A stretch of DNA of 64,000 bases, taken from the NCBI GenBank assembly GCA_035530655.1, contig DATKUK010000102.1, forward strand, positions 143,199-207,198, given 5' to 3'. The notes beneath the pieces were generated by a model. The model had not been told where the DNA came from and did not search any database. It saw only the letters and a program-made list of their open reading frames with translations. Shown in pieces: positions 878-64,000 of this stretch (within the stretch, counting starts at the first letter, position 1; each line of letters opens with the position of its first letter). The translations under genes were made by a program, and so were the position numbers. Source of the stretch: Phycisphaerae bacterium (lineage in GTDB: Bacteria > Planctomycetota > Phycisphaerae > UBA1845 > DATKUK01).

Positions 878-2092
878 TTAGCGGGGAGGCACATAAGGAA
901 ATATTTCCGTCCCGTTAATCACACCATAAACGTATCGCTGGTGCTCATTAAATGGAAATTCTTTTACATCATATCCATCAAATAGGCTAATTGAAGACAT
1001 CCCGTTGACGAATATCACGAATACACAAACCAGGTAGATATTACCCGATGTTGCTATGGGCTCAGTGGTGCACCTGCGTCTATATGCAATATGCAGCATA
1101 AGAAAGCTAGTTGTCACTGCCAATGTGTTCCATCTATGCATATCCCAACCCACATTGTGCAACAGCAGTGGGGATAAAGAGGCAAGGATAGATAGTAATA
1201 CAAAATACGCTTTAGTCTTTGATTTCCTTAAAATAGAAGTTGAAAAATAAATAAAGACCAGAAAGGCAGGGCCCGTAACGACGCATGAACGTAACAAGTC
1301 TATATATCTCCTCTTGTGCGACCACATTTCTTTCATGATGTCAAGAGTATCTTTTGAAGTTCTATGTAATACATCGAAAGCCGTTTGTCTTAAAGGATGT
1401 TCTATGCTCGCCTGTAGGCTATTGTACATTTTATGTGCTTCTGAAGTCTCCAAGGTAGAGGCGGATACAAATAATCCAAGAGCAAGCAACGCGGCCGAGA
1501 ATAAGCCCAATAGTAGAAGTTTCCTTATGCGCTCCTCGGACTCGATGCTAAATAGAAGTGACATGAAAACAATAGGGAAGAATACAACGATAATGGCTTC
1601 ATGAACCAGCAGAGCCACGGCCATTGATGGCAATGAAAAGAGTAGTTTTTTATAGAAACCAGTTATGTTTAATGTTACTAACGCAAACAGCAAGCCTACA
1701 TGGTCGCAATATCCAATAGAATGAGATAGAAAAACAACAGCAAGGCTAGATGCATAAATCAACGAACAGCCAAGAAGCGCTGGCTCGGCGCTGCGAATGA
1801 AATCTCGTATTAAAATGCTCAAAAGGATAATGTTTATAGAACAAATCACTATGCTGACAATAAGGAAACATTCGTATGATATCGGATAATGATTATTAAG
1901 GTGGCTGAAAAGTGCACCAATGAACCCTCTTTTTGTAAAGCCGAAGTCATAGTTAAATAGGAAATGACTGTAAGACCATATGTTTGGAAAACGGATTCCC
2001 CTGAGAATAGATAAGAATAATAGTACAGATGCGAGCAAACGCCAGAGTGTGATGTCACAACCTGAATTCATTATTGGCTTGGTATTGCGCAT
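878..2092 (-). CDS. AT-rich polytopic integral membrane protein (about 10-12 TM helices), possibly a Wzy/EpsG-like polysaccharide polymerase or ligase (speculative)
   Basis: A 404-aa ORF with many hydrophobic segments. The gene is conspicuously AT-rich against a GC-rich background, which suggests horizontal origin. I recognise no catalytic motif. Confidence 0.65.
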   Translation of the reverse strand: MRNTKPIMNSGCDITLWRLLASVLLFLSILRGIRFPNIWSYSHFLFNYDFGFTKRGFIGALFSHLNNHYPISYECFLIVSIVICSINIILLSILIRDFIRSAEPALLGCSLIYASSLAVVFLSHSIGYCDHVGLLFALVTLNITGFYKKLLFSLPSMAVALLVHEAIIVVFFPIVFMSLLFSIESEERIRKLLLLGLFSAALLALGLFVSASTLETSEAHKMYNSLQASIEHPLRQTAFDVLHRTSKDTLDIMKEMWSHKRRYIDLLRSCVVTGPAFLVFIYFSTSILRKSKTKAYFVLLSILASLSPLLLHNVGWDMHRWNTLAVTTSFLMLHIAYRRRCTTEPIATSGNIYLVCVFVIFVNGMSSISLFDGYDVKEFPFNEHQRYVYGVINGTEIFPYVPPR

Positions 2093-5584: not shown

Positions 5585-6118
5585 TCAGCGGCACCTGTTA
5601 GGGCGTCGGCTGCAAGCCCACTCCAATGCTTCCTGAGCGATAATCTCGTATGCAGCACTCTTGTTCATGATGTATTCCTCCCGTGCTGCGGCTGCACTGG
5701 CCGCCTCCCTCTTTCGTTGTGCTAACCACTGGGCGCGTTCGCCGTTGCCTTTGAGATACTCGCGGAAGGCCAAGTGCTTGCGCAGCTCAGGCGAATCCGA
5801 TTCACAGGCGTACAGATGATGGCCGGGCAGCTCGGCGGCCGCTGAGTGTGGCAAGGGCGCGAACGCTTCGCGGGTCGAAATACCCCCGTCGCCTTCATGC
5901 ATATAGCCGGTAGCAGCTAACGCCTTTATCACGTCGGACATGGACCCACCGGGGCATTCGACATCGATGTCGATGATATCCTTGGACGGCATGCCCGCAA
6001 CAGACGTGGACCCGACGTGATGGAACCGGCATCCAGCGGGGAGATGCGGACGAAGCATCGTGACTATAGAGTCGAATCGCTCCGACCAGTCAGGGTTGTA
6101 CTCTGTGATGTATCGCAT
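5585..6118 (-). CDS. GrpB-family protein (UPF0157, nucleotidyltransferase-like fold)
   Basis: HHVGSTSVAGMPSKDIIDIDV is the GrpB signature. It is 177 aa. Confidence 0.75.
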   Translation of the reverse strand: MRYITEYNPDWSERFDSIVTMLRPHLPAGCRFHHVGSTSVAGMPSKDIIDIDVECPGGSMSDVIKALAATGYMHEGDGGISTREAFAPLPHSAAAELPGHHLYACESDSPELRKHLAFREYLKGNGERAQWLAQRKREAASAAAAREEYIMNKSAAYEIIAQEALEWACSRRPNRCR

Positions 6119-6225
6119 GGCATTCGTGGGCTGACACTGCGGATCAGACGCGGCTGTAGCCCATCGCCCGCATCTGCCTCTTCTGGGAATACTGACCTAT
6201 ACGAGTCTACTCTTCGGCCTCTCGA

Positions 6226-7008
6226 TCAATTCTCTTCCGGCTTCCTGCACTGAACCGTTATTGCGCCAGCCTCCTTGCTCGGAGGATCGTCGGTCAGCCA
6301 GTGTGTCGCTCTTATGTCTCTGAATCCTGCCGATGTGGCATACCGTACGGCCTCATCAACAGTGAAGAAACAACCCCATCTCTCATTTGCTTCCGTTTCG
6401 ACCAGGCGCCCGCGAACAAACTTCTCCACCACAAACAACCTTTCCCACACATGGGTGGTGGCATCGTACTTATTCCTGTTTCGCCATGCGATGACCACAT
6501 CATCAGGCCCCGTCACCCAGTCACCGGCCCATCTGCCATCATTCTGATTCGTATTGTCTTCGGCGGGCACAGGCGCGAATTCATAGACAAATAAACCGCC
6601 CGGCTTCAAATGCGCCATCACTCGTTCAAATGTTGAATGTATATCCTGATCGCGGGTGAAAAGGCCGAGTCCGCCTGAATCCAGAAAGATCAGGCCAAAG
6701 TCCCGAGGAAGATCGAATTCCAGCATCGATTGCTGGTGCAGTTCCGCCTTCAGGCCATTTGCCTCGCATGCGGCGAGACATTTTGCCATCATGTCCTCAG
6801 ATGTATCGATTCCGACGATGTGAAAGCCTCGCTCAAGAAGGGGAACAAGAACCCTGCCCGTGCCGCTCCCAAGCTCCAGTATGGGCTCGCTTGATGCTTC
6901 TATGCATTTCACCCAGAACTCGATCTCTTCGCTGTGATCCTTGCTGCCGGAGACCAGTTCATACCATTCGGCATGCAACTTCCGATACTCTTTATGGTCC
7001 ATGATCAA
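6226..7008 (-). CDS. class I SAM-dependent methyltransferase
   Basis: Motif I is ILELGSGTGRVL and the post-I acidic motif is VGIDTSEDM. It is 260 aa. Confidence 0.8.
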   Translation of the reverse strand: MIMDHKEYRKLHAEWYELVSGSKDHSEEIEFWVKCIEASSEPILELGSGTGRVLVPLLERGFHIVGIDTSEDMMAKCLAACEANGLKAELHQQSMLEFDLPRDFGLIFLDSGGLGLFTRDQDIHSTFERVMAHLKPGGLFVYEFAPVPAEDNTNQNDGRWAGDWVTGPDDVVIAWRNRNKYDATTHVWERLFVVEKFVRGRLVETEANERWGCFFTVDEAVRYATSAGFRDIRATHWLTDDPPSKEAGAITVQCRKPEEN

Positions 7009-7118: not shown

Positions 7119-8156
7119 TTACGTTGCCCATCGTGAGAAGTCCACGTCGACAAACGGGACATCGTTCTCGAAACTGCTCTTCATCCAGGCGAATGTCCTG
7201 TCATGGCGGCCGACGCTTCCGAAGTCCTCCGTCGCACAAGGGGAAGTGGCGAGCATGGAGAGCTCTCTCGCTTTCAGGAAGAGAGGCAAGGACGCTGCCC
7301 ATCTTCGGTCCAACACGTGTTCCTGCCGGTAGCCTTCCATGAACGCATCGAGGAACTCTGCGGCACGCAGGGCCGAGTCGCGCGGCTGGCTGTCCGGGGT
7401 CTTCCATACCCAGAAGAAAAGCGCCGAGCCGATCTCTGACGCCAGCCCTGAGTAGTGGGCACATTCAAAGTCGATAACCACGGGACCGTCCGCCGACACG
7501 AGAACGTTGCCGCCGTGCAGGTCGTTATGTACGGGACCGTGGTCGACGGCAGGTAATTCCTCCAACGCCGCGCGCAGCTCGATGCACCTGGCGATCACGC
7601 GAGGCATCGACGGGTGTATGACGTCCGCCGGCGACTTGAACCAGGGCATGTCCGACCACATGCTCAGTTTGGCGCCGGCCGCGGCAGGCGAGTAGCCGAG
7701 GGAAACGCGATGCATCTTGCCGGCCAGCCGCCCGACAGGGCCAATGACCTCGCGGCTGTTGGGACACTCCTGCCACAGCCGACCCTCGATCCTTTCAAGG
7801 CAATAGGCGCTGACGTGCCATCCGTCCACGACCTGCGACTCGATCAGATTACCGTCGAGCGATCGGCATGGTTGCGGAACCGCGACGCCGCCGGCGTGGA
7901 GATGCGCCATCCAGTCAATCTCGCCGAGCAACAGCGGGTGGCGACTCTCGGCGGACGGAAGCACCTTGAATATGACCTCACCCGTCGGCGCCGGAGACCT
8001 GTAGACAAAGTTCCGGTGATCTTGTATCAGCGTAAGCGAGTTCATGGCCAAACCGAAACGTTCAGCCAGTTCTGGCAACGCACCGGTCAGAAGAATCTGT
8101 CTCGATCTATCGTCCATGGGGCGCAGCAATCTGGTGCTTTCCCATGCTTCTGTCAA
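7119..8156 (-). CDS. aminoglycoside phosphotransferase (APH)/choline-kinase-like small-molecule kinase
   Basis: The Brenner/catalytic motif is VHNDLHGGNVLV and the metal-binding motif is VIDFE. It is 345 aa. Confidence 0.8.
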   Translation of the reverse strand: MTEAWESTRLLRPMDDRSRQILLTGALPELAERFGLAMNSLTLIQDHRNFVYRSPAPTGEVIFKVLPSAESRHPLLLGEIDWMAHLHAGGVAVPQPCRSLDGNLIESQVVDGWHVSAYCLERIEGRLWQECPNSREVIGPVGRLAGKMHRVSLGYSPAAAGAKLSMWSDMPWFKSPADVIHPSMPRVIARCIELRAALEELPAVDHGPVHNDLHGGNVLVSADGPVVIDFECAHYSGLASEIGSALFFWVWKTPDSQPRDSALRAAEFLDAFMEGYRQEHVLDRRWAASLPLFLKARELSMLATSPCATEDFGSVGRHDRTFAWMKSSFENDVPFVDVDFSRWAT

Positions 8157-23136: not shown

Positions 23137-24891
23137 TCAACATGGGGTAGGGCAGGGGGGTGACGCCGTCTGCGCCACGTAGATCCAACGCTCGGTGGCC
23201 GGGCCGAAGTTCTTCCCGTCGCACCTGGCACGAGCCTGCACCACGTATGGCCCGGGCAGCACGTCGGTGAACAGCGCCTTTCCGTCAGCCGTCCGTCGGA
23301 CAGCGATGCACCGGCTGCGGTCGCGCGTCAACAGACGGCACTCGAACGCCACCTTGTCGGCCTGCCCTTGCCCGACAAGCGTACACTGCACCTCGACACG
23401 ATCGCCCCCAGCCGGGATGCGTGTCGGGTGGGTGGGCGAGAACACCGCGGTAATGCACTGATCCGGGTTGTGGCGTAACTGGAGCGTCGTCGCGTGGGCG
23501 GAGCCGCGATGGAGCACCACGTCCGGCACGGTAATCTCTCCAGGGCGCTGCACCGTCAACACTCTGGGTGAGTCCCCGCCGATCGTGTACACCAACGTCG
23601 AGCCGGAAGGCAGAGGAAACTGATGCGGCTGGCGAATGGTCACGTGGTAGCGTGTCTGCTCGACGGGCGCCCGCCACGCAGCCGTCGGACCGTCGAGCAG
23701 GAACGGGCTCACCTCCAGCCGGTCGGGCTCGTCGATCAGCCCATCCCAACGGACGAAGGCGTTAAGCATCCCGCGCGGGCAGCTTCGCGGATCGCAGTCG
23801 GCTTGCCACAACCCGCCGGCGTCGATCCCGAACTGTCCCTGGCCGACGTGCTGAAAGATGATGGCTGGTCGGTCGAGCCTCACCTGACCGGTGGCGACCG
23901 GCACGAAAGGAGGATACCAACGCCCCAATGGATCGTCCTTGTGGTGGGTGCGCTGATCCCAGACAAACGTGCCCGCGGCCCGGCCGGCCAACAGCAGGTC
24001 GTACAGCCCCGGCTTGCCAGACTCGACGGAAAGGTACTGGGTAAACGGCACCGTGCGGTCCTTAAGGCCGTGCTCGATCTGGAGCCAACCCGGGTAGGGC
24101 GGCTCGGCCTGGAGCCATCGTGCCGCGTTCAGGTAGTCCCAGACGCCGATGTCGGTGCCTGCTACGCGGAGGTTCCACTGCCTCGGGCCGAACAGTCGCT
24201 CAGCCTCATCGATCATCTGGGGTGCGCCGGCAGGCGTGATCAGCGGCTCGATGGCGAGGCACCCGACTAAATGCTCCGAATGGGTCAGCGCCAGCAGCAG
24301 CGCGCCCGTGCCGCCCATCGAGGCCCCATGCACCCATACGCGCCGGGGGTCGGCTCGGAAGCGTTCCAGGACGAACCGCAACGTATAAAGCAGCCGTCGC
24401 TGCGTGTAGGGCACCACCTGCGTATCACGCTGAGGCTGGGCGGGAAAACGCTCGTGGTAGCCGAACCACGCCGTGTGCCCGGGTTGTCGCTCCCCAAGCC
24501 AATGGGTCTGCGCCAGTGCGTCGGTGTTGTCGTCGGGGATCACGACGATGTGATCGGGCCATCGGCGCTCCCGCCGATTGAAATCGCCCTGGCGCGCGTG
24601 CAGAACCGTGACCACCGGCGCCGGCTCTGTCATGCTTTCCGCCGTTGGCCGCAATAGCGGCAGGCGTACCAGGAAGTCGTAGCAGACCGCCCCAACGCCG
24701 GGCGCGCTCATGGATGAGTCCGTTTCGTGTCGGAAGTGGTAATACCAGTAACCCCAGTGGCTGAAGTGTTTCACCAACGTCGGCTCACGGGGTTCGGCCG
24801 CCTGGAGCGGAACCCAGGCTGCCGCGGTTAGAAACAGGCAACAGACGGTTCGCCACGTGCCGGCCGATACGATCCTTCCCAGCCGCTCCAT
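23137..24891 (-). CDS. secreted alpha/beta-hydrolase (esterase or S9-peptidase-like)
   Basis: The nucleophile elbow GxSxG is VHGASMGGTG. A signal peptide follows the Met at 24891 (MERLGRIV...AAWVPLQAAEP). The longest ORF extends to 24990. Confidence 0.7.
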   Translation of the reverse strand: MERLGRIVSAGTWRTVCCLFLTAAAWVPLQAAEPREPTLVKHFSHWGYWYYHFRHETDSSMSAPGVGAVCYDFLVRLPLLRPTAESMTEPAPVVTVLHARQGDFNRRERRWPDHIVVIPDDNTDALAQTHWLGERQPGHTAWFGYHERFPAQPQRDTQVVPYTQRRLLYTLRFVLERFRADPRRVWVHGASMGGTGALLLALTHSEHLVGCLAIEPLITPAGAPQMIDEAERLFGPRQWNLRVAGTDIGVWDYLNAARWLQAEPPYPGWLQIEHGLKDRTVPFTQYLSVESGKPGLYDLLLAGRAAGTFVWDQRTHHKDDPLGRWYPPFVPVATGQVRLDRPAIIFQHVGQGQFGIDAGGLWQADCDPRSCPRGMLNAFVRWDGLIDEPDRLEVSPFLLDGPTAAWRAPVEQTRYHVTIRQPHQFPLPSGSTLVYTIGGDSPRVLTVQRPGEITVPDVVLHRGSAHATTLQLRHNPDQCITAVFSPTHPTRIPAGGDRVEVQCTLVGQGQADKVAFECRLLTRDRSRCIAVRRTADGKALFTDVLPGPYVVQARARCDGKNFGPATERWIYVAQTASPPCPTPC

Positions 24892-24970
24892 CGGATCCGC
24901 GGTGGGCGCAGCCCTGCTTGCCTGCCCGGACACGGTCGCTATGCTAAAGGTGAGCGAACGGTCCGACGAC

Positions 24971-25504
24971 ATGCCGAAAGAGCCCTCCACTACGCAGGAT
25001 ACGTCCGTCGCGAGAGCTGAAGCCGCCTTTCGCGCCCATCTGCGGCGCCGAGGCCTGAAGTATACTCGCGAGCGACGGGCGATTCTCCAGGCCGTGATGC
25101 GAAACGAGCAACATTTTGAGGCCGAGGGGCTGCTACTAGCGATGCGCCAGCAGGCCGTCCGGGTGGGGAAGGCTACGATCTACCGCACGTTGCCGTTGCT
25201 GGTTGAGGCGGGGATTGTCCGAGAGGTGATCTACGGAGAGAAGCACGCCCACTACGAACACACGTTCGGGCACACGCCGCACGACCATATGGTCTGTCGT
25301 GACTGCGGTCAGGTGATCGAGTTCGATAGCAAAGAGGTGCTCGAGCTGATAGGGCAACTTTGCGGGCGACAGGGCTTCGAGCCGCTCTATCACCGCTTCC
25401 AGGTATCCGGCCGATGCGATAGATGCCAGCGCGTGGCCGCGCAGCGTCGCCGAGGCGCTAGCAGAGCGCGGCGTACGTCATCAGGGCCAGCACAGCGATC
25501 CTGA
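24971..25504 (+). CDS. fur: Fur-family metal-responsive transcriptional regulator
   Basis: The DNA-binding helix is ATIYRTL. The metal-site motifs are HAHYEH...HDHMVCRDCGQVIEF and CDRC. The alternative start is ATG 24941. Confidence 0.75.
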   Translation: MPKEPSTTQDTSVARAEAAFRAHLRRRGLKYTRERRAILQAVMRNEQHFEAEGLLLAMRQQAVRVGKATIYRTLPLLVEAGIVREVIYGEKHAHYEHTFGHTPHDHMVCRDCGQVIEFDSKEVLELIGQLCGRQGFEPLYHRFQVSGRCDRCQRVAAQRRRGASRARRTSSGPAQRS

Positions 25505-25906: not shown

Positions 25907-27526
25907 ATGGCTGAGCAATCGTACATGGAGAAGCTGACCGCGCTGTGCAAGCGGCGCGGGTTTATCTTTCAGTCGAGCGAGATCTATGGGGGCATCGGCG
26001 GCTTCTGGGACTACGGACCGCTCGGTGTGGAACTCAAACGCAACATCAAGAATGCCTGGTGGCACGACATGGTCACCACGCGCGACGACATCGTCGGGAT
26101 CGACTGTGCGATCATCATGAACCCGAGTGTATGGGAGGCCAGCGGGCATGTCACCGGCTTCACCGACCCGCTGGTGGACTGCAAGAGCTGCAAGGCCCGC
26201 TTTCGGGCGGATCAGCTTAGTATGTACTATGTGTATGCCGTGGAGCACATCCCCGAGGTGTTCTCCGCAGTCGAGCGGAAGCAGGTCGAGCAGGACTCTC
26301 CTGTGCAGACCGAATTGGTGACGGAAGAGGGGTCGTCGGACGATGTGGTGCAGACGATCGCCCGGCGCATGCTGAACTCCAAGCGGGCCAAGGTCGTCGT
26401 CGTGCCCGGTCGGGAGAACGGTCCGGCGTGGCGGTTCGTCCAGGACGGGCCGAAAAACTACCTCCTCGCGCCTTACAACGCGGCGATCGGTGCCGACAAC
26501 CCATACCATCGCTGCCCGAACTGCGGGGGCGGCCTGACCGATCCACGCAAGTTCAACCTCATGTTCGAGACCTACGTGGGGGCCATGCGCGATTCCTCGT
26601 CGCGGGCGTACTTGCGGCCCGAGACGGCGCAGGGGATCTTCGCGAACTTCAAGAACGTGCTCGATACCACGCGCATCAAGCTGCCCTTCGGCATCGCCCA
26701 GATCGGCAAGAGCTTCCGCAACGAGATCAACCCGCGCAACTACACGTTCCGCTCGCGGGAGTTCGAGCAGGCCGAGATGGAGTTCTTCTGCCATCCCTCC
26801 GAGGCGGAAAAGTGGTATGAGTACTGGCGCGACGCGCGGTACCGCTGGTACGTCGACCTGGGGCTTAAGAGCGACCGGCTCAGCTTGCGCGACCACACGC
26901 CCGAAGAGCTGGCCCATTACGCACGTGGCTGTGCCGACGTGGAGTATGCGTTTCCCTTCGGCGTATCAGAACTCGAGGGCATCGCCAACCGCACCGACTA
27001 CGACCTTACCCAGCACCAGAACGCCAGCGGGAAGGATCTGACCTACTTCGACGACCAGACACGCGAGCGCTTCATTCCCTATGTCGTCGAGCCGGCAGGG
27101 GGCATCGACCGGACGGCCTTGGCGCTTCTGTGTGAAGCCTACACCGAAGATGAGGCTCCCGACGAGAAGGGCGTGCCGCAGCCGAGGACGCTGATGAAGT
27201 TTCACCCGCGCGTGGCACCGATCAAGGCGGCGGTGTTCCCGCTCGTCAAGCGCGACGGTATGCCCGAGATCGCGCGGGCGATCTACGAGCAACTGCGCCA
27301 GTGCGTGCCTGCATTCCATGACGACAAGGGTGCCATCGGCCGACGCTACCGCCGCCAGGACGAGGCCGGCACCCCGTTCTGCTTTACCGTCGACGGGCAG
27401 ACCCTCGAAAACGGTACCGTAACGGTCCGCGACCGGGACTCGCTGCGGCAGGAGCGGATCGATAAGTCACGGGTACAGCAATACCTGGCCGACGCCTTGG
27501 GTCGCGCGGTCGTTGAAGGCGGCTGA
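25907..27526 (+). CDS. glyQS: glycine--tRNA ligase (dimeric class II type)
   Basis: It reads MAEQSYMEKLTALCKRRGFIFQSSEIYGGIGGFWDYGPLGVELK... and carries class II motifs. Confidence 0.95.
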   Translation: MAEQSYMEKLTALCKRRGFIFQSSEIYGGIGGFWDYGPLGVELKRNIKNAWWHDMVTTRDDIVGIDCAIIMNPSVWEASGHVTGFTDPLVDCKSCKARFRADQLSMYYVYAVEHIPEVFSAVERKQVEQDSPVQTELVTEEGSSDDVVQTIARRMLNSKRAKVVVVPGRENGPAWRFVQDGPKNYLLAPYNAAIGADNPYHRCPNCGGGLTDPRKFNLMFETYVGAMRDSSSRAYLRPETAQGIFANFKNVLDTTRIKLPFGIAQIGKSFRNEINPRNYTFRSREFEQAEMEFFCHPSEAEKWYEYWRDARYRWYVDLGLKSDRLSLRDHTPEELAHYARGCADVEYAFPFGVSELEGIANRTDYDLTQHQNASGKDLTYFDDQTRERFIPYVVEPAGGIDRTALALLCEAYTEDEAPDEKGVPQPRTLMKFHPRVAPIKAAVFPLVKRDGMPEIARAIYEQLRQCVPAFHDDKGAIGRRYRRQDEAGTPFCFTVDGQTLENGTVTVRDRDSLRQERIDKSRVQQYLADALGRAVVEGG

Positions 27527-27574
27527 CGTCTCGCTACGTCCACGGGCACTGCCGCATCGTCCGGTTTCTGCAAA

Positions 27575-27630
27575 AAGGCGCTTGACCGCACGCGTTACTA
27601 CAGTGTACTGTTATAATATATAACTATACT
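27575..27630 (+). promoter_or_regulatory. AT-rich promoter/operator island with a perfect extended -10 TGTTATAAT (27609-27617) overlapping the imperfect palindrome GTTATA-ATA-TATAAC, upstream of the ArsR-like gene
   Basis: Read directly. TGnTATAAT fully matches the extended -10 consensus. It sits about 60 nt upstream of ATG 27676, which has a GGGAG Shine-Dalgarno. Confidence 0.45.
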
Positions 27631-27675
27631 ATGTAATAACTTTAACGATCCTGTTAACCTTTGTTGGGAGCAGCC

Positions 27676-28308
27676 ATGTCGTCCAGCCCGAAACCTTCCG
27701 CCGTTCGAACTCAGGCCGCCTCGACGGACCGCCCGTCACGCCCGCGCCAACAGCCAAAGGGAAGCAAAAAGAGTTCTCAAAAGAAAAGGCCGCACGGTGA
27801 CGATACCAGACGGCGCTCGCGCCAAACCCGTGACGGACGCGGCAGGGGGTTGGCTACGCTCTTCCCCAAGGTGGTCAAGAACCGGCGTCTGTTTGGGCTG
27901 GCAGGGGTCTGCGGGTTGGCCGAGTGCGACGGTACCAAGCCCATTATCACGGTCGAGCGACGAGAGGAGCTGTTCACCAAGCCCGCCAGGCGGCCCCGCG
28001 AGCGATTCCTGTCGGCCGCCTCCGACGAGCGAATCGCCAAACTCTGCAACGCCATGGCCAATCCGCGTCGCGTGGCCATGCTCAAGGCGATCTTCACCGG
28101 AGCGGGCAGATATGCCCAGCTCGCAGAAACGCTGGGGCTCAAGGCCGGGCCGCTGTATCACCATGTACGCGAACTTCGCCTGGCTGGACTGCTTGAACTC
28201 GCACAGCGCGACACCTACCGTCTGACCGAGTACGGCAAATACGCCTTGCTGTTAGCCTGCCTGAGTGAATCGCTGCTGAGCAAACTCCATTCGACCGACC
28301 GCGAATAG
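27676..28308 (+). CDS. ArsR/SmtB-like winged-helix transcriptional regulator with a basic low-complexity N-terminus
   Basis: The HTH region is NPRRVAMLKAIFTGAGRYAQLAETLGLKAGPLYHHVRELRLAGLLE. The N-terminal 80 aa are rich in R, K and S. Confidence 0.6.
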   Translation: MSSSPKPSAVRTQAASTDRPSRPRQQPKGSKKSSQKKRPHGDDTRRRSRQTRDGRGRGLATLFPKVVKNRRLFGLAGVCGLAECDGTKPIITVERREELFTKPARRPRERFLSAASDERIAKLCNAMANPRRVAMLKAIFTGAGRYAQLAETLGLKAGPLYHHVRELRLAGLLELAQRDTYRLTEYGKYALLLACLSESLLSKLHSTDRE

Positions 28309-28492
28309 CCCTCGCGATGGGCGACGGGAAGCGTTCTTCGGCACGCTCTAAAGCCGCCATCGCCAACGATCCGAAGGGTCTCAGTTGGCTGGTCGACCAC
28401 GCCGACAGACCTATGGCTGACCCCCAGCGGGCCCAATTCGGCACAACCCGCACGTAACTCGTTGTTATTAAAGTACTTAAGCATAAGGTCCG

Positions 28493-28506
28493 ATAAGATA
28501 TCTTAT
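28493..28506. repeat. 14-bp perfect palindrome ATAAGATATCTTAT in the AT-rich convergent intergenic region between the ArsR-like gene and fabF
   Basis: Read directly. It is embedded in the AT-rich patch cgttgttattaaagtacttaagcataagg. Confidence 0.5.
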
Positions 28507-28519
28507 GTTGCGCTCGCCG

Positions 28520-29791
28520 CTATCGTCGTGCAGGCTCAGCCCGGCCGACAACCAGTGCACCGATAGCACCCCCGAACCCCGTCGACAGCTTCAGCGCGTA
28601 CTCGATGTTCTGATGACGTGCGTATCCGGGCACATAATCAAGGTCACAGGCTGGGTCAGGATCCATCAGGTTAGCCGTCGGCGGTGCGACCTGCCGCGCC
28701 ACCGCCAGTACGGTAATGGCCGCCTCAACGGCCCCAGCCGCGCCCATCATATGCCCCAGGCCGCCTTTGACTGAGCTTACGGGCACGCGGTGTGCAGTGG
28801 GGCCCAGCACAGCTTTCAGGGCGCGGGTCTCGATGGGGTCGTTGGCCCGGGTAGCCGTGCCGTGCGCGTTAACGTATCCGATCCGGTCGGGTTCGATCCC
28901 GGCCGCATCGATGGTGCGACGCAGGACAGTCGCCAGGGCCTCGCCGTCGTTTCCGAGCTCGGCTAACCCAGCCGGGTCGGCGCCCATACCCCAGCCAACC
29001 AACCGGCCAAGCATGCGCCCGCCACGAGCCAACACACCTTCGGGCGACTCGAGCACGAGCACAGCCGCTCCTTCCCCGAGGGCAAATCCGCGCCGTTGAC
29101 GATCGAACGGACGGCATGCGGTGCTCGCATCCCCGTCGGCCTCAGCGAGAACCCCCATACGCCGGAACGAGCTGACGAACAGAGGGTGGATCGATGCGTC
29201 GGTAGCACCGGCCAGCACAACGTCAGCCTGGCCGTCGGCAATCAGCTGGGCACCGCGAATCACAGCGTGCAACCCGGTGGCACAAGCGGTCGCCATACCT
29301 ATACAGGGCCCCGTCACTGCGAACTGGCGGGCCACCGCCCTCGCCGGCTCGGCCGGGTCTGTTCTGCCCAACGCTGCCGCCGCTGTGCGGTCGCCGGCAA
29401 GAAAGGCCTTGTGAGCTGTCAGCAGGCTCAGCACGCAGCCCTTGCTGCACCCGATGACCACCCCCCCCGCCCTCATCCCGGCCGGCGCCCTGCCTGCCAG
29501 CCCTGCCTGCTCTACTGCCTCTCGTGCTGCGTCGACCACGAAGCTGACGGCCCGGTCCGTCCCGTTCAGGGCATCTGCCTGTACAACCCTGGCCACCGCG
29601 GCGTGGGTATCCCCGACAGACTGTCGCCCTACCGCGGTGTGCCCCGCCAGCAGCCGCACCCACGTGGGCTCGACCCCCCTGCCCAGTGGGGTGACCATGC
29701 CGATACCCGTTACGCATACCGAGTTCACCGTCGCGTTCCGTCCACACCGACGTCGCAGGACTGCCCGACCGTCGCCGCGTCCATTCGACAT
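28520..29791 (-). CDS. fabF: beta-ketoacyl-ACP synthase II
   Basis: The N-terminus has VCVTGIGMVTPLG. The active-site Cys region is ACATGLHAV. The C-terminal His regions are YVNAHGTATRANDP and GHMMGAAG. The true start may be downstream of the longest-ORF Met. Confidence 0.9.
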   Translation of the reverse strand: MSNGRGDGRAVLRRRCGRNATVNSVCVTGIGMVTPLGRGVEPTWVRLLAGHTAVGRQSVGDTHAAVARVVQADALNGTDRAVSFVVDAAREAVEQAGLAGRAPAGMRAGGVVIGCSKGCVLSLLTAHKAFLAGDRTAAAALGRTDPAEPARAVARQFAVTGPCIGMATACATGLHAVIRGAQLIADGQADVVLAGATDASIHPLFVSSFRRMGVLAEADGDASTACRPFDRQRRGFALGEGAAVLVLESPEGVLARGGRMLGRLVGWGMGADPAGLAELGNDGEALATVLRRTIDAAGIEPDRIGYVNAHGTATRANDPIETRALKAVLGPTAHRVPVSSVKGGLGHMMGAAGAVEAAITVLAVARQVAPPTANLMDPDPACDLDYVPGYARHQNIEYALKLSTGFGGAIGALVVGRAEPARR

Positions 29792-29888
29792 CTATACTGT
29801 AGGCAGCCAGACTGTCCTGTGTTTCGCCCCGGCCGCAGACGACTGACGGGCTTCCTATAAAACGTTAACAGGGTCGCCAAAGCTCTTA

Positions 29889-29910
29889 TGTTATAATGTT
29901 ATAACATAAC
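29889..29910. promoter_or_regulatory. tandem TGTTATAA-TGTTATAA boxes containing the 12-bp perfect palindrome ATGTTATAACAT (29896-29907), in the fabF upstream region
   Basis: Read directly. It has the same TGTTATAA(T) box as the ArsR-like promoter. Both strands carry an extended -10-like element because of the symmetry. Confidence 0.45.
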
Positions 29911-29986
29911 AACCGTACAGAAGACCCGCCCGTACACATCTCCTACGGGCGGGCTCGCTCGACAACCCGTTTTTGACCGGCGCGAT

Positions 29987-31132
29987 TCACGCCTGCCCGG
30001 CCAAAGCATTCTGGAACGCCGCCACGCCCGCTCCGACCTTGACCGGCTGGCCCATCTGCTTGAGCACCGCCTCGATCGCCGCCACGACGCCCAGCGTGTC
30101 GACCACGTCGACATAGCCCATGTGCGAGATGCGAATGATCTTGCCTTTGAGCTGGGCCTGCCCGCCGGCCACCTGGCAGCCGAAGTCCTTCAGCAGCGTC
30201 TTGCGCAGCGCCGCCTCATCGACGCCGTCCGGCACGAGCAGAGCCGTCACCGAGTCGACCGGATCGGCGGCGAAGACCTTCATGCCAACAGCCTGGGCCG
30301 CCGCGCGGGTGGCGCGGGCGAGCAGGGCCGTCCGCTTCCAGACGTTCTCGATCCCCTCGGCACAGATCATCTCCAGTGATTTCCGCGCGGCGCGGACGAG
30401 AGAAACAGCCGGCGTATAAGGCGAATCGTTGTCGGCCATCGCCTTGCGGTATGCGGGAAAGTTCACATAGTAGGTCGGGCTCTGGAAGGAATCGATGCGC
30501 TGCCATGCTCGCTCGCTGACGGCTGCAAAGCCCAGCCCCGGCGGCAGCATCATGGCCTTCTGCGAGCCGGTCACCACAACGTCTACGCCCCACTCGTCCA
30601 TCTTAAGCGGGATGGCCCCAACGGCCGTGATCCCGTCCACCAGCAGAAGCACGTCGCGCCGGCGCGTGATGGCCGCAATGGCCTGCAACTCGCTGACCGC
30701 GGCCGTCGATGTCTCACTATGCGTAATGATCACGTAGCCGATCTGCGGGTCCTTATCGAGGTAACTCTTGATCGCGTCCGCCTTGGCTCCGTGGCCCCAC
30801 TCGACATCGTGGCAAATACAGGGGATGTTGAAAGCTTCGCACACCTCAGCCCACCGCTCACCGAACTTGCCGCCCCGCGCAACAAGCGCCTTCCTGTCGG
30901 GTTTGCAGGTACTGACGATCGCTCCTTCCATCGTGCCCGTCCCACTGCTGGCCAGGATCAGTGGAAGCTGCTTCGTCTGGAAGACGTGTTTGAGCCCTTC
31001 CAGCACCTCTCCGGTCAGAGCACGAAACTGGCTCGTGCGATGGTGCTCGATGGGCCGGGCCATCTCCAGCAGAACTTCTTCCGGCACCATGGTCGGGCCG
31101 GGCGTGAACAAACGTAGCTTGGCCATCATCAT
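29987..31132 (-). CDS. class V aminotransferase (serine-pyruvate/alanine-glyoxylate aminotransferase-like)
   Basis: The N-terminus has FTPGPTMVPEEVL. The PLP-lysine region is VVVTGSQKAMMLPPGLG. It is 381 aa. Confidence 0.85.
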   Translation of the reverse strand: MMMAKLRLFTPGPTMVPEEVLLEMARPIEHHRTSQFRALTGEVLEGLKHVFQTKQLPLILASSGTGTMEGAIVSTCKPDRKALVARGGKFGERWAEVCEAFNIPCICHDVEWGHGAKADAIKSYLDKDPQIGYVIITHSETSTAAVSELQAIAAITRRRDVLLLVDGITAVGAIPLKMDEWGVDVVVTGSQKAMMLPPGLGFAAVSERAWQRIDSFQSPTYYVNFPAYRKAMADNDSPYTPAVSLVRAARKSLEMICAEGIENVWKRTALLARATRAAAQAVGMKVFAADPVDSVTALLVPDGVDEAALRKTLLKDFGCQVAGGQAQLKGKIIRISHMGYVDVVDTLGVVAAIEAVLKQMGQPVKVGAGVAAFQNALAGQA

Positions 31133-31235: not shown

Positions 31236-31763
31236 TCAGCCGGACGTCCGTGGACGGTCCTTCCGGTCCGCAGGCAGTTGGCCCCGCTTGGCCGCCTCTC
31301 GCTGGGGTGCGAATACGGTGGCCATGGGCAGCTTGTCCCTAAGGTAGAGAAAGATGTACGTGCTGACCACCAGACCGATGTGGTACACCACGCACATGCC
31401 CACAAACCCCCAGGGCAGCGCCCATCCGCGATGGTAGTACATCCACGGCAGGACAAACGAATTGGCCAGCACGATGAAGGTCTGGATGGGGCGCACGCGC
31501 CACGGTCCCTGCATCGCGGTGCGGGCGATCCACGTCAACATGAAGACCAGCACATAATTCCATGTAAGCGCGGCATACATCACCGCGTAGGGCCAGCCAG
31601 CAAATGACCATGCCACCACGCCCCATATTACGGTGATTGGGGCTAGGATCCGCAGCGACGCCCGGATCGCCAACAGCATCGTCAGTTTCGGGCTGGGCAT
31701 CCGTGCGGTCTGCTTGTCGGAGGGGCTGGCCGAGGCAGACGGGGGTGGTTGCTGATCAGACAT
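31236..31763 (-). CDS. hypothetical integral membrane protein (4 TM helices)
   Basis: It has hydrophobic helices after a Pro/Ser-rich N-terminus. It is 175 aa. Confidence 0.55.
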   Translation of the reverse strand: MSDQQPPPSASASPSDKQTARMPSPKLTMLLAIRASLRILAPITVIWGVVAWSFAGWPYAVMYAALTWNYVLVFMLTWIARTAMQGPWRVRPIQTFIVLANSFVLPWMYYHRGWALPWGFVGMCVVYHIGLVVSTYIFLYLRDKLPMATVFAPQREAAKRGQLPADRKDRPRTSG

Positions 31764-31840: not shown

Positions 31841-33121
31841 TCAGTCGCCTGCTTCCCCAGGGGCAGGGCCATCCTCGGCGGCGGTTCGGTCCGGCGGCTG
31901 ACCCTCTGGTTCGGGGCTCTTGGCAAACAGGTAGTAAAGCCTGCCCTCGGCCATGCTTCGGCCGGCCAGTCGCCCCGCCTGCGCACCGATACCCATAAAC
32001 ACGTCGCATCGTCCGGCTGCACGAATGGCGTTGCCCCGATCCTGATCGAGGACGAAGCCGTAGAACAGCTGCGTCGCAACTCGCCCGCCTGCCTCCCGCG
32101 CAAGCTCGGTCACCGCGTAGGCCAGACACGCCCGAGGGTAGATCTCCTTGTCGGTGGCAATGGACCGAAACGGCAGCACCGGAACGTTGAGACAGCCATA
32201 TGGTCCACCGGTGACCGGCTTGAAGAACACATAACGGGGGTTGAGCGGCAGGTAGACATCAAGTTGCTCAGGATGCTGCTTGAAGAAGTTGATCATGGCG
32301 TCGAGCGACAGTTCGTTCCGGTCTAGCTTGCCGTGACTGATCATGGCTTCGCCCACGGAGACGTAGTCGTACCCGTTATCGCCGGCGAACCCGATCTCCA
32401 TGAGACGCCCATCGGGCAGACGAAGACGCGCCGAGCCCTGGACCGACACCACGTAGGCCTCAAACGCGTCGCCCAGCCACACAAGTTCGCTGCCCGGCAG
32501 ACCCAGCTTGGTGATTTGATCCCGGGTGTAATAGGCTACGACGTTCCCGTCTGCGCTCCGCCGGCCCAGCGTCACGCCCGTTTGCGGGTCTCGAACCAGA
32601 TCCGGCGGGGGCTTGTGGAGCGGGTAGTGAAACCGCTCGTCCGGCTGGAGGCGGGCGTCGAAGATCGGGCAGTAGTACCCGGTGAACAGCACGGTTCCCT
32701 CGTCGTCATAACCTACCGACGTATAGACGTCGAACCGCCTGCGCAGCGCGTCGTTAAACTGCTCCGGCGTCTGCGCTTCATCCAGCAGTAGGAGGAACTG
32801 CCGTAGACTCGTGACGGCACGATCGTGTGAGATCTGGCCGTACGGGAAGAACCGTCGGCTGGAAGGCTTGGCCAGATAGGCCAGACTGTTGTTGGCCGCC
32901 TGACGAAGCCCGTGCTGATCGGCAAAGCCGGCTGCGAAGTCGGGGATCTGCGCCGGATCAGTCACCTTCCGCAGGGCCAACTGACCGGCAGGCAGCGGGC
33001 GACTGTAGTCGGGCTGTTCGGGCGGGCCGATAGGTGAGGTCACCTGTCCCCGCTTCAAGCCGCACCCCCCTACCGCGATGGCCACCAACACCCCGAGCCC
33101 GACAGCCAAGCGAGTCCTCAA
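31841..33121 (-). CDS. mltA: membrane-bound lytic murein transglycosylase A-like lipoprotein
   Basis: The lipoprotein signal is [10 protein letters not shown]. The MltA-like core is FTGYYCP...[12 protein letters not shown] with a 3D-domain-type C-terminus. It is 426 aa. Confidence 0.55.
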
Positions 33122-63777: not shown

Positions 63778-64000
63778 CTTGTCTCGGGCAGGACCACCGG
63801 TCAGGGCGGGCTCGCACGGACCGCCATATCCGGCCTCTGCGCCTAGCACACCGGTTCTGGCGATCGGGTAGCCGGGTCGGTTGCCCTGACCCGGCTCCCA
63901 CACCACCGTACGTACGGTTCCGTATACGGCGGTTCACGAGGAACACGCAAGACGTCGATGCTCTTCCATCAGGCTGATGAGGCCCAGTCCGCGCAACTCA

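Follow-up and report, generated by a model that had tools for sequence, protein, structure and literature searches.

A probable dif recombination site and two candidate promoter-operator regions around an ArsR-fold gene in a Phycisphaerae bacterium

Published dif sites include ATGTCCGATAACAGATATTATGTTAACT from the Acidobacteria member Ellin345 and TCTACCGATAAGCGACATTATGTCAAGT from Mycobacterium, both in the supplementary list of Kono et al. (2011, PMC3025954), a study in which dif prediction failed for the only Planctomycete genome analysed. Replication terminator systems, that is, tus/terB and rtp/Ter, are known from few lineages only (PMC10331603). Here, we analyzed a 64-kb stretch (62.6% GC) of contig DATKUK010000102.1 from a Phycisphaerae bacterium, referred to as the window, in which an initial annotation had described three AT-rich islands. 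These were said to flank a gene for an ArsR-like regulator, which encodes a 210-aa winged-helix protein (27676-28308, plus strand), and a convergent gene for a beta-ketoacyl-ACP synthase II-like protein (KAS, fabF-like; 28520-29728, minus strand, with a probable GTG start at 29728 based on comparison of the N-terminus with orthologs). All of the motifs quoted for the islands were present where they had been placed, and the islands proved to be conserved in orthologous loci. Our reading, to which we give a probability of about 0.6, is that island 2, between the two genes, is a dif site, and that islands 1 and 3, upstream of the ArsR-fold gene and the fabF-like gene, respectively, are extended −10 promoters together with operators bound by the ArsR-fold protein.

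The character of island 2 emerged from a matrix built on 33 published dif sites, all of them from other phyla (Acidobacteria, Actinobacteria, Tenericutes and Verrucomicrobia). A scan of the window returned one outstanding match, at 28486-28513 on the plus strand (14.9 bits; runner-up 1.3), and this placement, the published dif lists and alignment with relatives all delineated a XerC-like arm, AGGTCCGATAA, a centre, GATATC, and a XerD-like arm, TTATGTTGCGC. The element has the dif-type architecture, in which two 11-bp arms form an imperfect inverted repeat about a 6-bp centre (28 bp in all), and it aligns with the published Ellin345 and Mycobacterium sites. Moreover, the 14-bp perfect palindrome ATAAGATATCTTAT (28493-28506), which had been proposed as an operator, is the inner ATAA-N6-TTAT portion of the two arms. 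The islands do flank the two genes as first described, but island 2 lies just 6 nt past the stop codon of the fabF-like gene, in the intergenic space between convergent genes. That all three islands, this palindrome included, serve as operators of the adjacent ArsR-like regulator, as the initial annotation had it, is highly improbable: TGTTAT-type boxes are common to the three islands and the regulator has the ArsR fold, but the 28 bp in which the palindrome is contained agree with dif over both arms as well as in spacing, ATAAGAT as a half-site is unlike GTTATA, and the dif-type sequence also occurs in contigs that lack the regulator. Most likely, then, one 'palindromic operator' is actually a recombination site, which carries a lesson for annotation.

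Related loci, designated L001, L003 and so on, were compared over 8-10 kb each. With the same matrix, the homologous position was the unique top match in 14 related loci (10-24 bits), always on the strand of the ArsR-like gene, and the matrix also picked out variants containing GATATATTATGTT (L018 and L019) and ACGCCCGATAATGGACGTTATGTCCGAT (L022, 23.9 bits). The block (A/T)(G/A)GTCCGATAAGATAT(C/A)TTATGTTGCGC was identical or near-identical in every relative, and the 24-nt core GTCCGATAAGATATCTTATGTTGC was invariant in most lineages, although the adjacent intergenic DNA could not be aligned. Altogether, the dif-type site was near-invariant across at least 10 lineages. An exact 22-mer was found once in each of four genome bins (draft bins from a species-representative collection) and in six contigs of a metagenome scan, counts that miss variants such as those in L018, L019 and L022. 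Conservation extended to a stretch of ~35 bp on the XerC-arm side of dif (28452-28485, plus strand), which aligned as ACGTAAnTC...TGTTATTAMAGT..TTAAG..TAAGG. The island 2 motif TTGTTATTAAAG begins here, at 28462, and the box TGTTATTAAA (28463-28472) matches a 10-bp palindrome, TGTTATAACA, that recurs in the other islands; in the close clade, this third box takes the form TGTTATTA(A/C)A within the conserved stretch.

Compositional signals occur near the site. Cumulative G−C reached its maximum at 26.4 kb, as computed over this single 64-kb window of mixed gene orientation. Going rightward across the site, plus-strand GC skew fell by ~0.05 in both gene sets: from +0.035 to −0.019 in plus-strand genes, and from −0.047 to −0.094 in minus-strand genes. 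Taken together, the convergent genes, the cumulative G−C peak and the fall in skew would fit the signature that is expected at a terminus. Neither a DnaA-box cluster nor parS was found in the window, and these absences, alongside a cumulative skew maximum rather than a minimum, ruled out an origin or centromere. We also noted G-rich heptamers that were polarised toward the site (reference point 28500, whole window), namely GGTGGGG (14:0), GGGGCGG (16:2) and GGCAGGG (17:3). They were set aside as candidates for FtsK-orienting-type words, as their polarity is linked to GC skew, and the motif known from E. coli, GGGNAGGG, was unpolarised.

Islands 1 and 3 share a different element. The box TGTTATAA was enriched: its four matches in 64 kb all fall in this region, the expected number is 0.14 and none of 100 shuffles reached four, whereas the bare hexamer GTTATA was not (seven matches versus 4.4 expected in 64 kb). 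When up to two mismatches were allowed, the 10-bp palindrome TGTTATAACA had seven matches in the window, five of which were within 27609-29906. Dinucleotide shuffles of the three islands gave a mean of 0.37 matches of this type, none of 5000 shuffles reached five, and all three islands received a match in only 0.14%. The shared box is therefore more than a consequence of AT-richness. Few 30-nt windows between 7 and 62 kb had a GC content of ≤34%, and the three islands were the longest such stretches there. Within the 8-10 kb compared for each relative, AT-rich islands were essentially limited to these three intergenic regions, and islands 1-3 were conserved where the proteins were 68-88% identical, with the adjacent GC-rich intergenic DNA diverged beyond alignment.

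This pattern bears on a further proposal of the initial annotation, that the AT-rich tracts could be nucleoid-protein sites, as well as on the related idea that they mark scars or the ends of DNA gained by horizontal transfer. Their AT-richness against a genome of 62.6% GC would invite such views, but we find them scarcely credible: the islands are short and sequence-specific, they are conserved in position and at specific bases, gene order is conserved with them across species, the genes between them have host-like GC at third codon positions (GC3), and no repeats of the kind seen at element ends were observed. A mobile or foreign island was likewise rejected on the conserved gene order and host-like GC3. 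We also considered whether islands 1 or 3 are degenerate dif sites; their matrix scores were negative (e.g., −9.7 for island 3 of L012), and the resemblance of TTATGTTATAA to the XerD arm was taken as coincidence. Island 2 is best regarded as a different kind of element from islands 1 and 3.

Upstream of the ArsR-fold gene, island 1 carries a perfect TGnTATAAT extended −10 in sense orientation, TGTTATAAT (27609-27617, plus strand), as initially annotated; this is also box 1 (TGTTATAATA, 9/10 against TGTTATAACA). It is kept as TGTTATAAT or TGTTATACT in the window, L001, L003, L006, L007, L015 and L020, and thus persists in family members that are only 26-36% identical (L007 and L020, with L018 and L019 having TGTTATCTT and TGTTATTAC, respectively). 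A −35-like hexamer, TTGACC (27582-27587, plus strand), is conserved as TTGAC in orthologs and is located 24 nt from TATAAT and 18 nt from TACTGT. Two conserved palindromes overlap the extended −10 and are candidate operators. The first, ACAGTGTACTGT (27600-27611), is a perfect ACAGTATACTGT in L003 and L015. The second is the inverted repeat GTTATA-ATA-TATAAC, which was recovered at 27610-27624, where it overlaps the −10 and the probable transcription start and could be a winged-helix dimer operator (TGTTAT-N5-ATAACt); it is retained in L003, is 5/6 in L001 and is degraded in L015. Farther along is an AT-rich leader with a second box, TGTAATAACT (27632-27641, plus strand; 8/10 matches), in which TATGTAA is conserved in the window, L003, L012 and L015. 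The leader ends with the element GTTAAC-CTTTGTT-GGGAG, including the Shine-Dalgarno sequence (27653-27670, plus strand), 5 nt ahead of the ATG. Across orthologs, the upstream layout reads TTGAC...(T)ACAGT(A/G)TACTGTTATA(A/C)T, followed by an AT-rich leader, (G/A)TTAAC, a T-rich stretch, GGAG and ATG.

Island 3 repeats this organization in the other direction. Its tandem TGTTATAA-TGTTATAA (29889-29904) and palindrome ATGTTATAACAT (29896-29907) were both recovered as described, and the region resolves into tandem boxes TGTTATAATG and TGTTATAACA that contain the palindrome (29889-29907). On the minus strand, TGTTATAAC (29906-29898) matches TGnTATAAT at 8/9 positions and is a candidate extended −10 for the fabF-like gene. 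The motif TATAACATAA(C/G) was invariant in the window, L001, L004, L010 and L012, with TATGATATAAG in L006, and a GTTAAC plus T-rich stretch in the fabF-like leader (29864-29869, minus strand) parallels the element in island 1. In sense orientation, orthologs have (T)TATGTTATAAC upstream of the KAS gene (TGATAATAT in L012), then TATAACATAA(C/G) and, about 20 nt on, (G/A/C)TTAAC and a T-rich stretch. Hence, islands 1 and 3 show the same two-part layout in each gene's sense orientation. The window and L012 lack 8 bp that are found in L001, L004 and L010 (L001 site 7279-7306), giving a start-to-start box spacing of 8 versus 17 bp, and it is this 8-bp deletion that generates the tandem TGTTATAA-TGTTATAA. 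The helical phasing of the island 3 boxes consequently differs between species, if one protein binds both. Between the aminotransferase stop codon and island 3, a GC-rich hairpin, CCCGCCCGTA...TACGGGCGGG (29925-29953, minus strand), with which a terminator-like call overlaps, is a probable terminator and would make island 3 a separate promoter.

The candidate binding protein is ArsR-like in its predicted fold, as had been proposed. The AlphaFold model, built from an 18-sequence alignment, comprises a disordered basic tail (residues 1-56), a two-hairpin beta domain (~73-100) and a winged helix with a long C-terminal helix (107-209), with pLDDT of ~90 over residues 120-205. Foldseek searches against the PDB returned SmtB, NolR, CadC, BigR, ArsR and HlyU as best matches, with target TM-scores of 0.62-0.76; the matches to SmtB, NolR, CadC, BigR and HlyU fell within 0.67-0.75. 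Sequence scores were below the curated cut-offs (HTH_5, 17.6 versus 22; HTH_20, 20.6 versus 27; NF033788, 26.6 versus 55), such that the term is valid for the modelled fold and does not extend to membership by curated sequence thresholds. The recognition-helix-like motif KAGPLYHHVRELRLAGLL was invariant in the family alignment, and we take it to correspond to the ArsR recognition helix. By inspection of the same alignment, neither a CXC motif nor an alpha-5 His/Asp/Glu metal site was seen; semi-conserved Cys residues mean that the protein may sense redox state. Close and distant relatives of the winged-helix protein were present in Phycisphaerae metagenome bins. A full HMMER search recovered 62 clusters (50% identity) at E ≤1e-30 and 461 at E ≤1e-10, mostly as full-length matches, and the family is thus larger than a word-indexed search had suggested. 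The few named members were Phycisphaerae, and the bins of L007 and L008 were labelled Planctomycetaceae. An NCBI-derived protein that is 99% identical (P0006) is annotated as 152 aa, and thus without the basic tail. Its deposited start codon is probably too far downstream, because the ATG at 27676 has a GGGAG Shine-Dalgarno sequence and the N-terminus is conserved in relatives.

A distant member, L024, carries a promoter, TTGACA-17-TATACT, under three AGTATACTGG palindromic repeats with a 16-bp period (25-85), and the ACAGTATACTGT of the window clade (27600-27611) is related to its AGTATACTGG. By analogy, the arrangement in L024 would have the classical look of an autorepressor operator.

Islands 1 and 3 would each combine promoter, operator and leader, for the ArsR-fold gene and the fabF-like gene, respectively, with the extended −10 elements (TGTTATAAT and TGTTATAAC) embedded in inverted or tandem TGTTATWACA repeats and the GTTAAC-plus-T-rich leader some 25-40 nt later. 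In the mechanism that we consider most likely, a dimeric ArsR-type repressor would cover the −10 and the transcription start when bound at its own promoter, and the same repressor would also control the fabF-like promoter. Autoregulation and co-regulation by the ArsR-like protein are plausible on the available sequences. Islands 1 and 3 share a conserved box, and relatives have it in these intergenic regions only; it is therefore reasonable to propose that a single local DNA-binding protein acts on both promoters. The common binding protein of the initial annotation is thus a plausible candidate for two islands, given the predicted ArsR fold, and is not supported for island 2, whose palindrome is not an operator of this kind. 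On the other hand, TGTTATAA(T) is an extended −10 in sense orientation in nearly every ortholog, so that part of the sharing could be due to RNA polymerase alone.

Carried to its conclusion, the latter point would make the TGTTATAA(T/C) box a strong extended −10 for the housekeeping RNA polymerase only, with AT-rich palindromes as by-products and no shared regulator. Consistent with this, the first box is always TGnTAnnnT in sense orientation across orthologs (TGTTATAAT, TGTTATACT, TGTTATAAC and TGATAATAT), and the exact palindromes are not kept in all orthologs, L015 and L012 being examples. Nevertheless, conservation of the second boxes and of TATAACATAA(C/G) lies downstream of the −10, at positions with no promoter requirement, the third box is located beside dif, where no gene begins, other genes in the window have no such islands, the repeats are enriched beyond island composition, and L024 carries three exact palindromic repeats. 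We thus consider a purely promoter-based explanation doubtful.

Several observations weigh against the combination of dif with two regulated promoters, which we nonetheless prefer. For dif, the 14.9 bits are well under the training-site median of 41.6, though over the training minimum of 5.0, and the score is low because the outer XerD arm is atypical, having GCGC versus the usual AAGT. The skew evidence is local. No tyrosine recombinase was present among the 17 window open reading frames (ORFs) scanned against Pfam (seven near the site and 10 elsewhere); Xer genes need not adjoin dif. Furthermore, L009 bears the identical core (6285-6312) beside parAB, and parAB is normally near the origin. 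This L009 contig has 69% GC and is labelled Acidobacteriota; the core has the start of an LptF/G-like permease gene on one side and the end of parB-parA on the other, no ArsR-like gene is close to it, and the contig may be mis-binned, a secondary replicon, or reflect an unusual chromosome layout. For islands 1 and 3, there is no canonical −35 at 16-18 nt, and a consensus −35/−10 scan gave no sense-strand promoter, a result that is compatible with the extended −10 class; canonical promoters were matched by that scan in antisense only, with doubtful meaning. The fabF-like leader would be ~170 nt and is poorly conserved, and the palindromes, for which the ArsR-like protein is only a putative ligand, vary between orthologs. 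With these points considered, we hold it very probable that 28486-28513 is a chromosomal Xer/dif site, which would lie at the replication terminus and serve tyrosine recombinases of the XerC/XerD type in the resolution of chromosome dimers.

The comparison of loci exposed a linkage that is a new observation. Wherever enough downstream DNA was available, a dif-type site was located 3′ of the ArsR-fold gene, on the same strand and with the XerC-like arm nearest, in members down to ~26% identity. Measured from the stop codon to the dif-type site, the distance was 177 nt in the window, 220 nt in L001, 231 nt in L003, 230 nt in L006, 122 nt in L017, 82 nt in L018, 67 nt in L019, 46 nt in L007, 38 nt in L020, about 93 nt in L008 and 45 nt in L022. 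The same arrangement was present in L010, L012 and L015, while L021 and L024 were uninformative, their contigs stopping 66 and 118 nt past the stop codon, respectively. In L007, L008 and L020, the pair persists though both outer neighbours differ from those in the window, with DUF2062 upstream, and small conserved proteins and HisRS downstream. The dif core occurs without the gene in L009 and probably also in L011, a 1-kb contig.

One explanation of this linkage is that the ArsR-like protein, from an unrecognised, basic-tailed family of ~460 clusters, is a factor dedicated to dif or the terminus, be it a Xer accessory or activator, a terminus organiser or a replication-terminator-like protein. 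Its binding sites, of the TGTTATWACA and AGTATACT types, would be found in the promoter of its gene, next to dif and spanning dif, in an arrangement that resembles tus/terB and rtp/Ter. The dif linkage holds at 26-88% protein identity, with other flanking genes differing, and in the window clade boxes are present on both sides of dif within 2.3 kb, with none elsewhere in the 64 kb. There is precedent in terminator-protein genes at the terminus beside the site that regulates them (PMC10331603) and in small helix-turn-helix (HTH) Xer activators encoded beside the dif-like sites of Xer-using mobile elements (PMC6744903). Still, we judge a dedicated role improbable, in that the fold is ArsR/SmtB, with no RTP or Tus in the top 50 Foldseek PDB matches and no Pfam match either, and the L007/L020 lineage shows no boxes on the far side of dif. 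In addition, the boxes are near-palindromic, so that fork-trap polarity cannot be read from them, the linkage could reflect a gene order inherited within a single phylum, and the dif core is present in contigs without the gene. If it were true, the protein would take part in resolving dimers, organising the terminus or terminating replication in a phylum whose cell division is highly unusual. It would then count as a third terminus protein system, evolved independently of Tus and RTP, or else would replace or assist FtsK in the control of Xer.

With respect to the surrounding genes, the order Fur (24857-25504, plus strand), glycyl-tRNA synthetase (GlyRS; 25907-27526, plus), the winged-helix gene, the convergent KAS gene, a class-V aminotransferase (29987-31132, minus) and MltA (31841-33121, minus) is retained where the winged-helix protein is 68-88% identical, which argues for a stable chromosomal neighbourhood rather than a mobile island. 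A 175-aa protein without a family match is encoded between the last two (31236-31763, minus). The KAS gene matched the Pfam ketoacyl-synt N and C domains but scored 319 bits against TIGR03150 fabF, under the cut-off of 493; its Cys-His-His motifs are intact by inspection, and it is a divergent paralog with its own conserved control region. In L006, the fabF-like gene was matched only as two overlapping low-identity fragments (38% and 30%; 5828-6483), possibly representing a pseudogene or assembly error, and the dif site and an island-3-like AT patch (6610-6652) are kept despite the fragmented gene. Between the ArsR-like gene and dif, a possible 46-codon ORF (28317-28457, plus) would encode the peptide stretch SKA..A.DP.G, which recurs in L001, L003 and L015; an in-frame 3-nt difference exists among relatives, and the ORF is absent from L012. 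We found it unconvincing as a small gene, given that the short peptide was seen in only three to four orthologs and that stop positions differ, and the stretch could be coding or merely conserved DNA.

Elsewhere in the window, the Rfam gathering scan detected only a group II intron fragment (catalytic-domain match at 63863-63934, minus strand, 44.3 bits versus a gathering score of 40), and several short AT-rich patches occur close to it, at 62.0-62.7 kb. A permissive Rfam scan of 27400-30100 returned nothing, and no tRNA or tmRNA genes were found in the window. At the other end is a 404-aa ORF (878-2092, minus strand) with a GC content of only 40% and an AT-rich stretch at 937-2086. It has approximately eight predicted membrane-spanning segments and no Pfam match, and resembles a polytopic membrane protein gained by horizontal transfer, of the kind known among surface-polysaccharide polymerases or ligases.

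Both dif sites and ArsR-type autoregulated promoters are known kinds of element, and this locus provides one further example of each. A literature search found no later description of a Planctomycetes dif, and this is apparently the first time that a dif sequence is made explicit for the phylum. The consensus GTCCGATAAGATATCTTATGTTGC, with its variants, would offer a simple marker of the replication terminus for Planctomycetota/Phycisphaerae, the phylum where the 2011 survey failed; it would help to orient replichores in draft genomes and enable searches for Xer-integrating elements. The constant pairing of dif with a small DNA-binding protein family is a testable lead, and could show how chromosome resolution or termination is organised in bacteria that divide without FtsZ.

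Compared with chromosomal dif sites (E. coli; Kono et al. 2011), the Phycisphaerae element is alike in being 28 bp, single-copy and intergenic, between convergent genes and, as far as the 64 kb show, at a local GC-skew switch, and the inner arm cores CCGATAA(G) and TTATGT, as well as the 6-bp spacing, are identical to those in dif of Acidobacteria and Actinobacteria. It differs in the outer XerD arm, which is GC(G/A)N rather than AA(G/C)T, in a centre, GATATC, that is itself palindromic, and in its constant linkage to one gene family. As to the promoters, both candidates resemble extended −10 sigma-70 promoters in having a perfect (TGTTATAAT) or 8/9 (TGTTATAAC) element in sense orientation upstream of a gene, with the poor −35 typical of the class, and differ in that they are embedded in conserved repeats that reach beyond promoter needs. 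The protein resembles the non-metal ArsR/SmtB repressors NolR, HlyU and BigR in its winged-helix fold, putative C-terminal dimerisation helix, HHxxxLxxAGL-type recognition helix and AT-rich palindromic DNA over its own candidate promoter, whereas the extra N-terminal disordered basic tail (~56 aa) and beta domain (~45 aa), and a gene that is always next to dif, set it apart. XafT belongs to DUF3653, another family. XafT-type Xer activation factors (TLC-phi; PMC6744903, PMC9226527) are likewise small HTH proteins encoded beside a dif-like site, but on a mobile element bounded by two such sites, in contrast to the one site and conserved chromosomal context found here. Finally, as in tus/terB of E. 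coli and rtp/TerI/II of B. subtilis, a small DNA-binding protein gene would be located at the terminus and carry probable binding sites in the promoter that drives it, and RTP, too, is a dimer of winged-helix subunits (PMC10331603); the Phycisphaerae protein matched neither Tus nor RTP in sequence (Pfam) or fold (top 50 Foldseek matches), and its boxes are without visible polarity.

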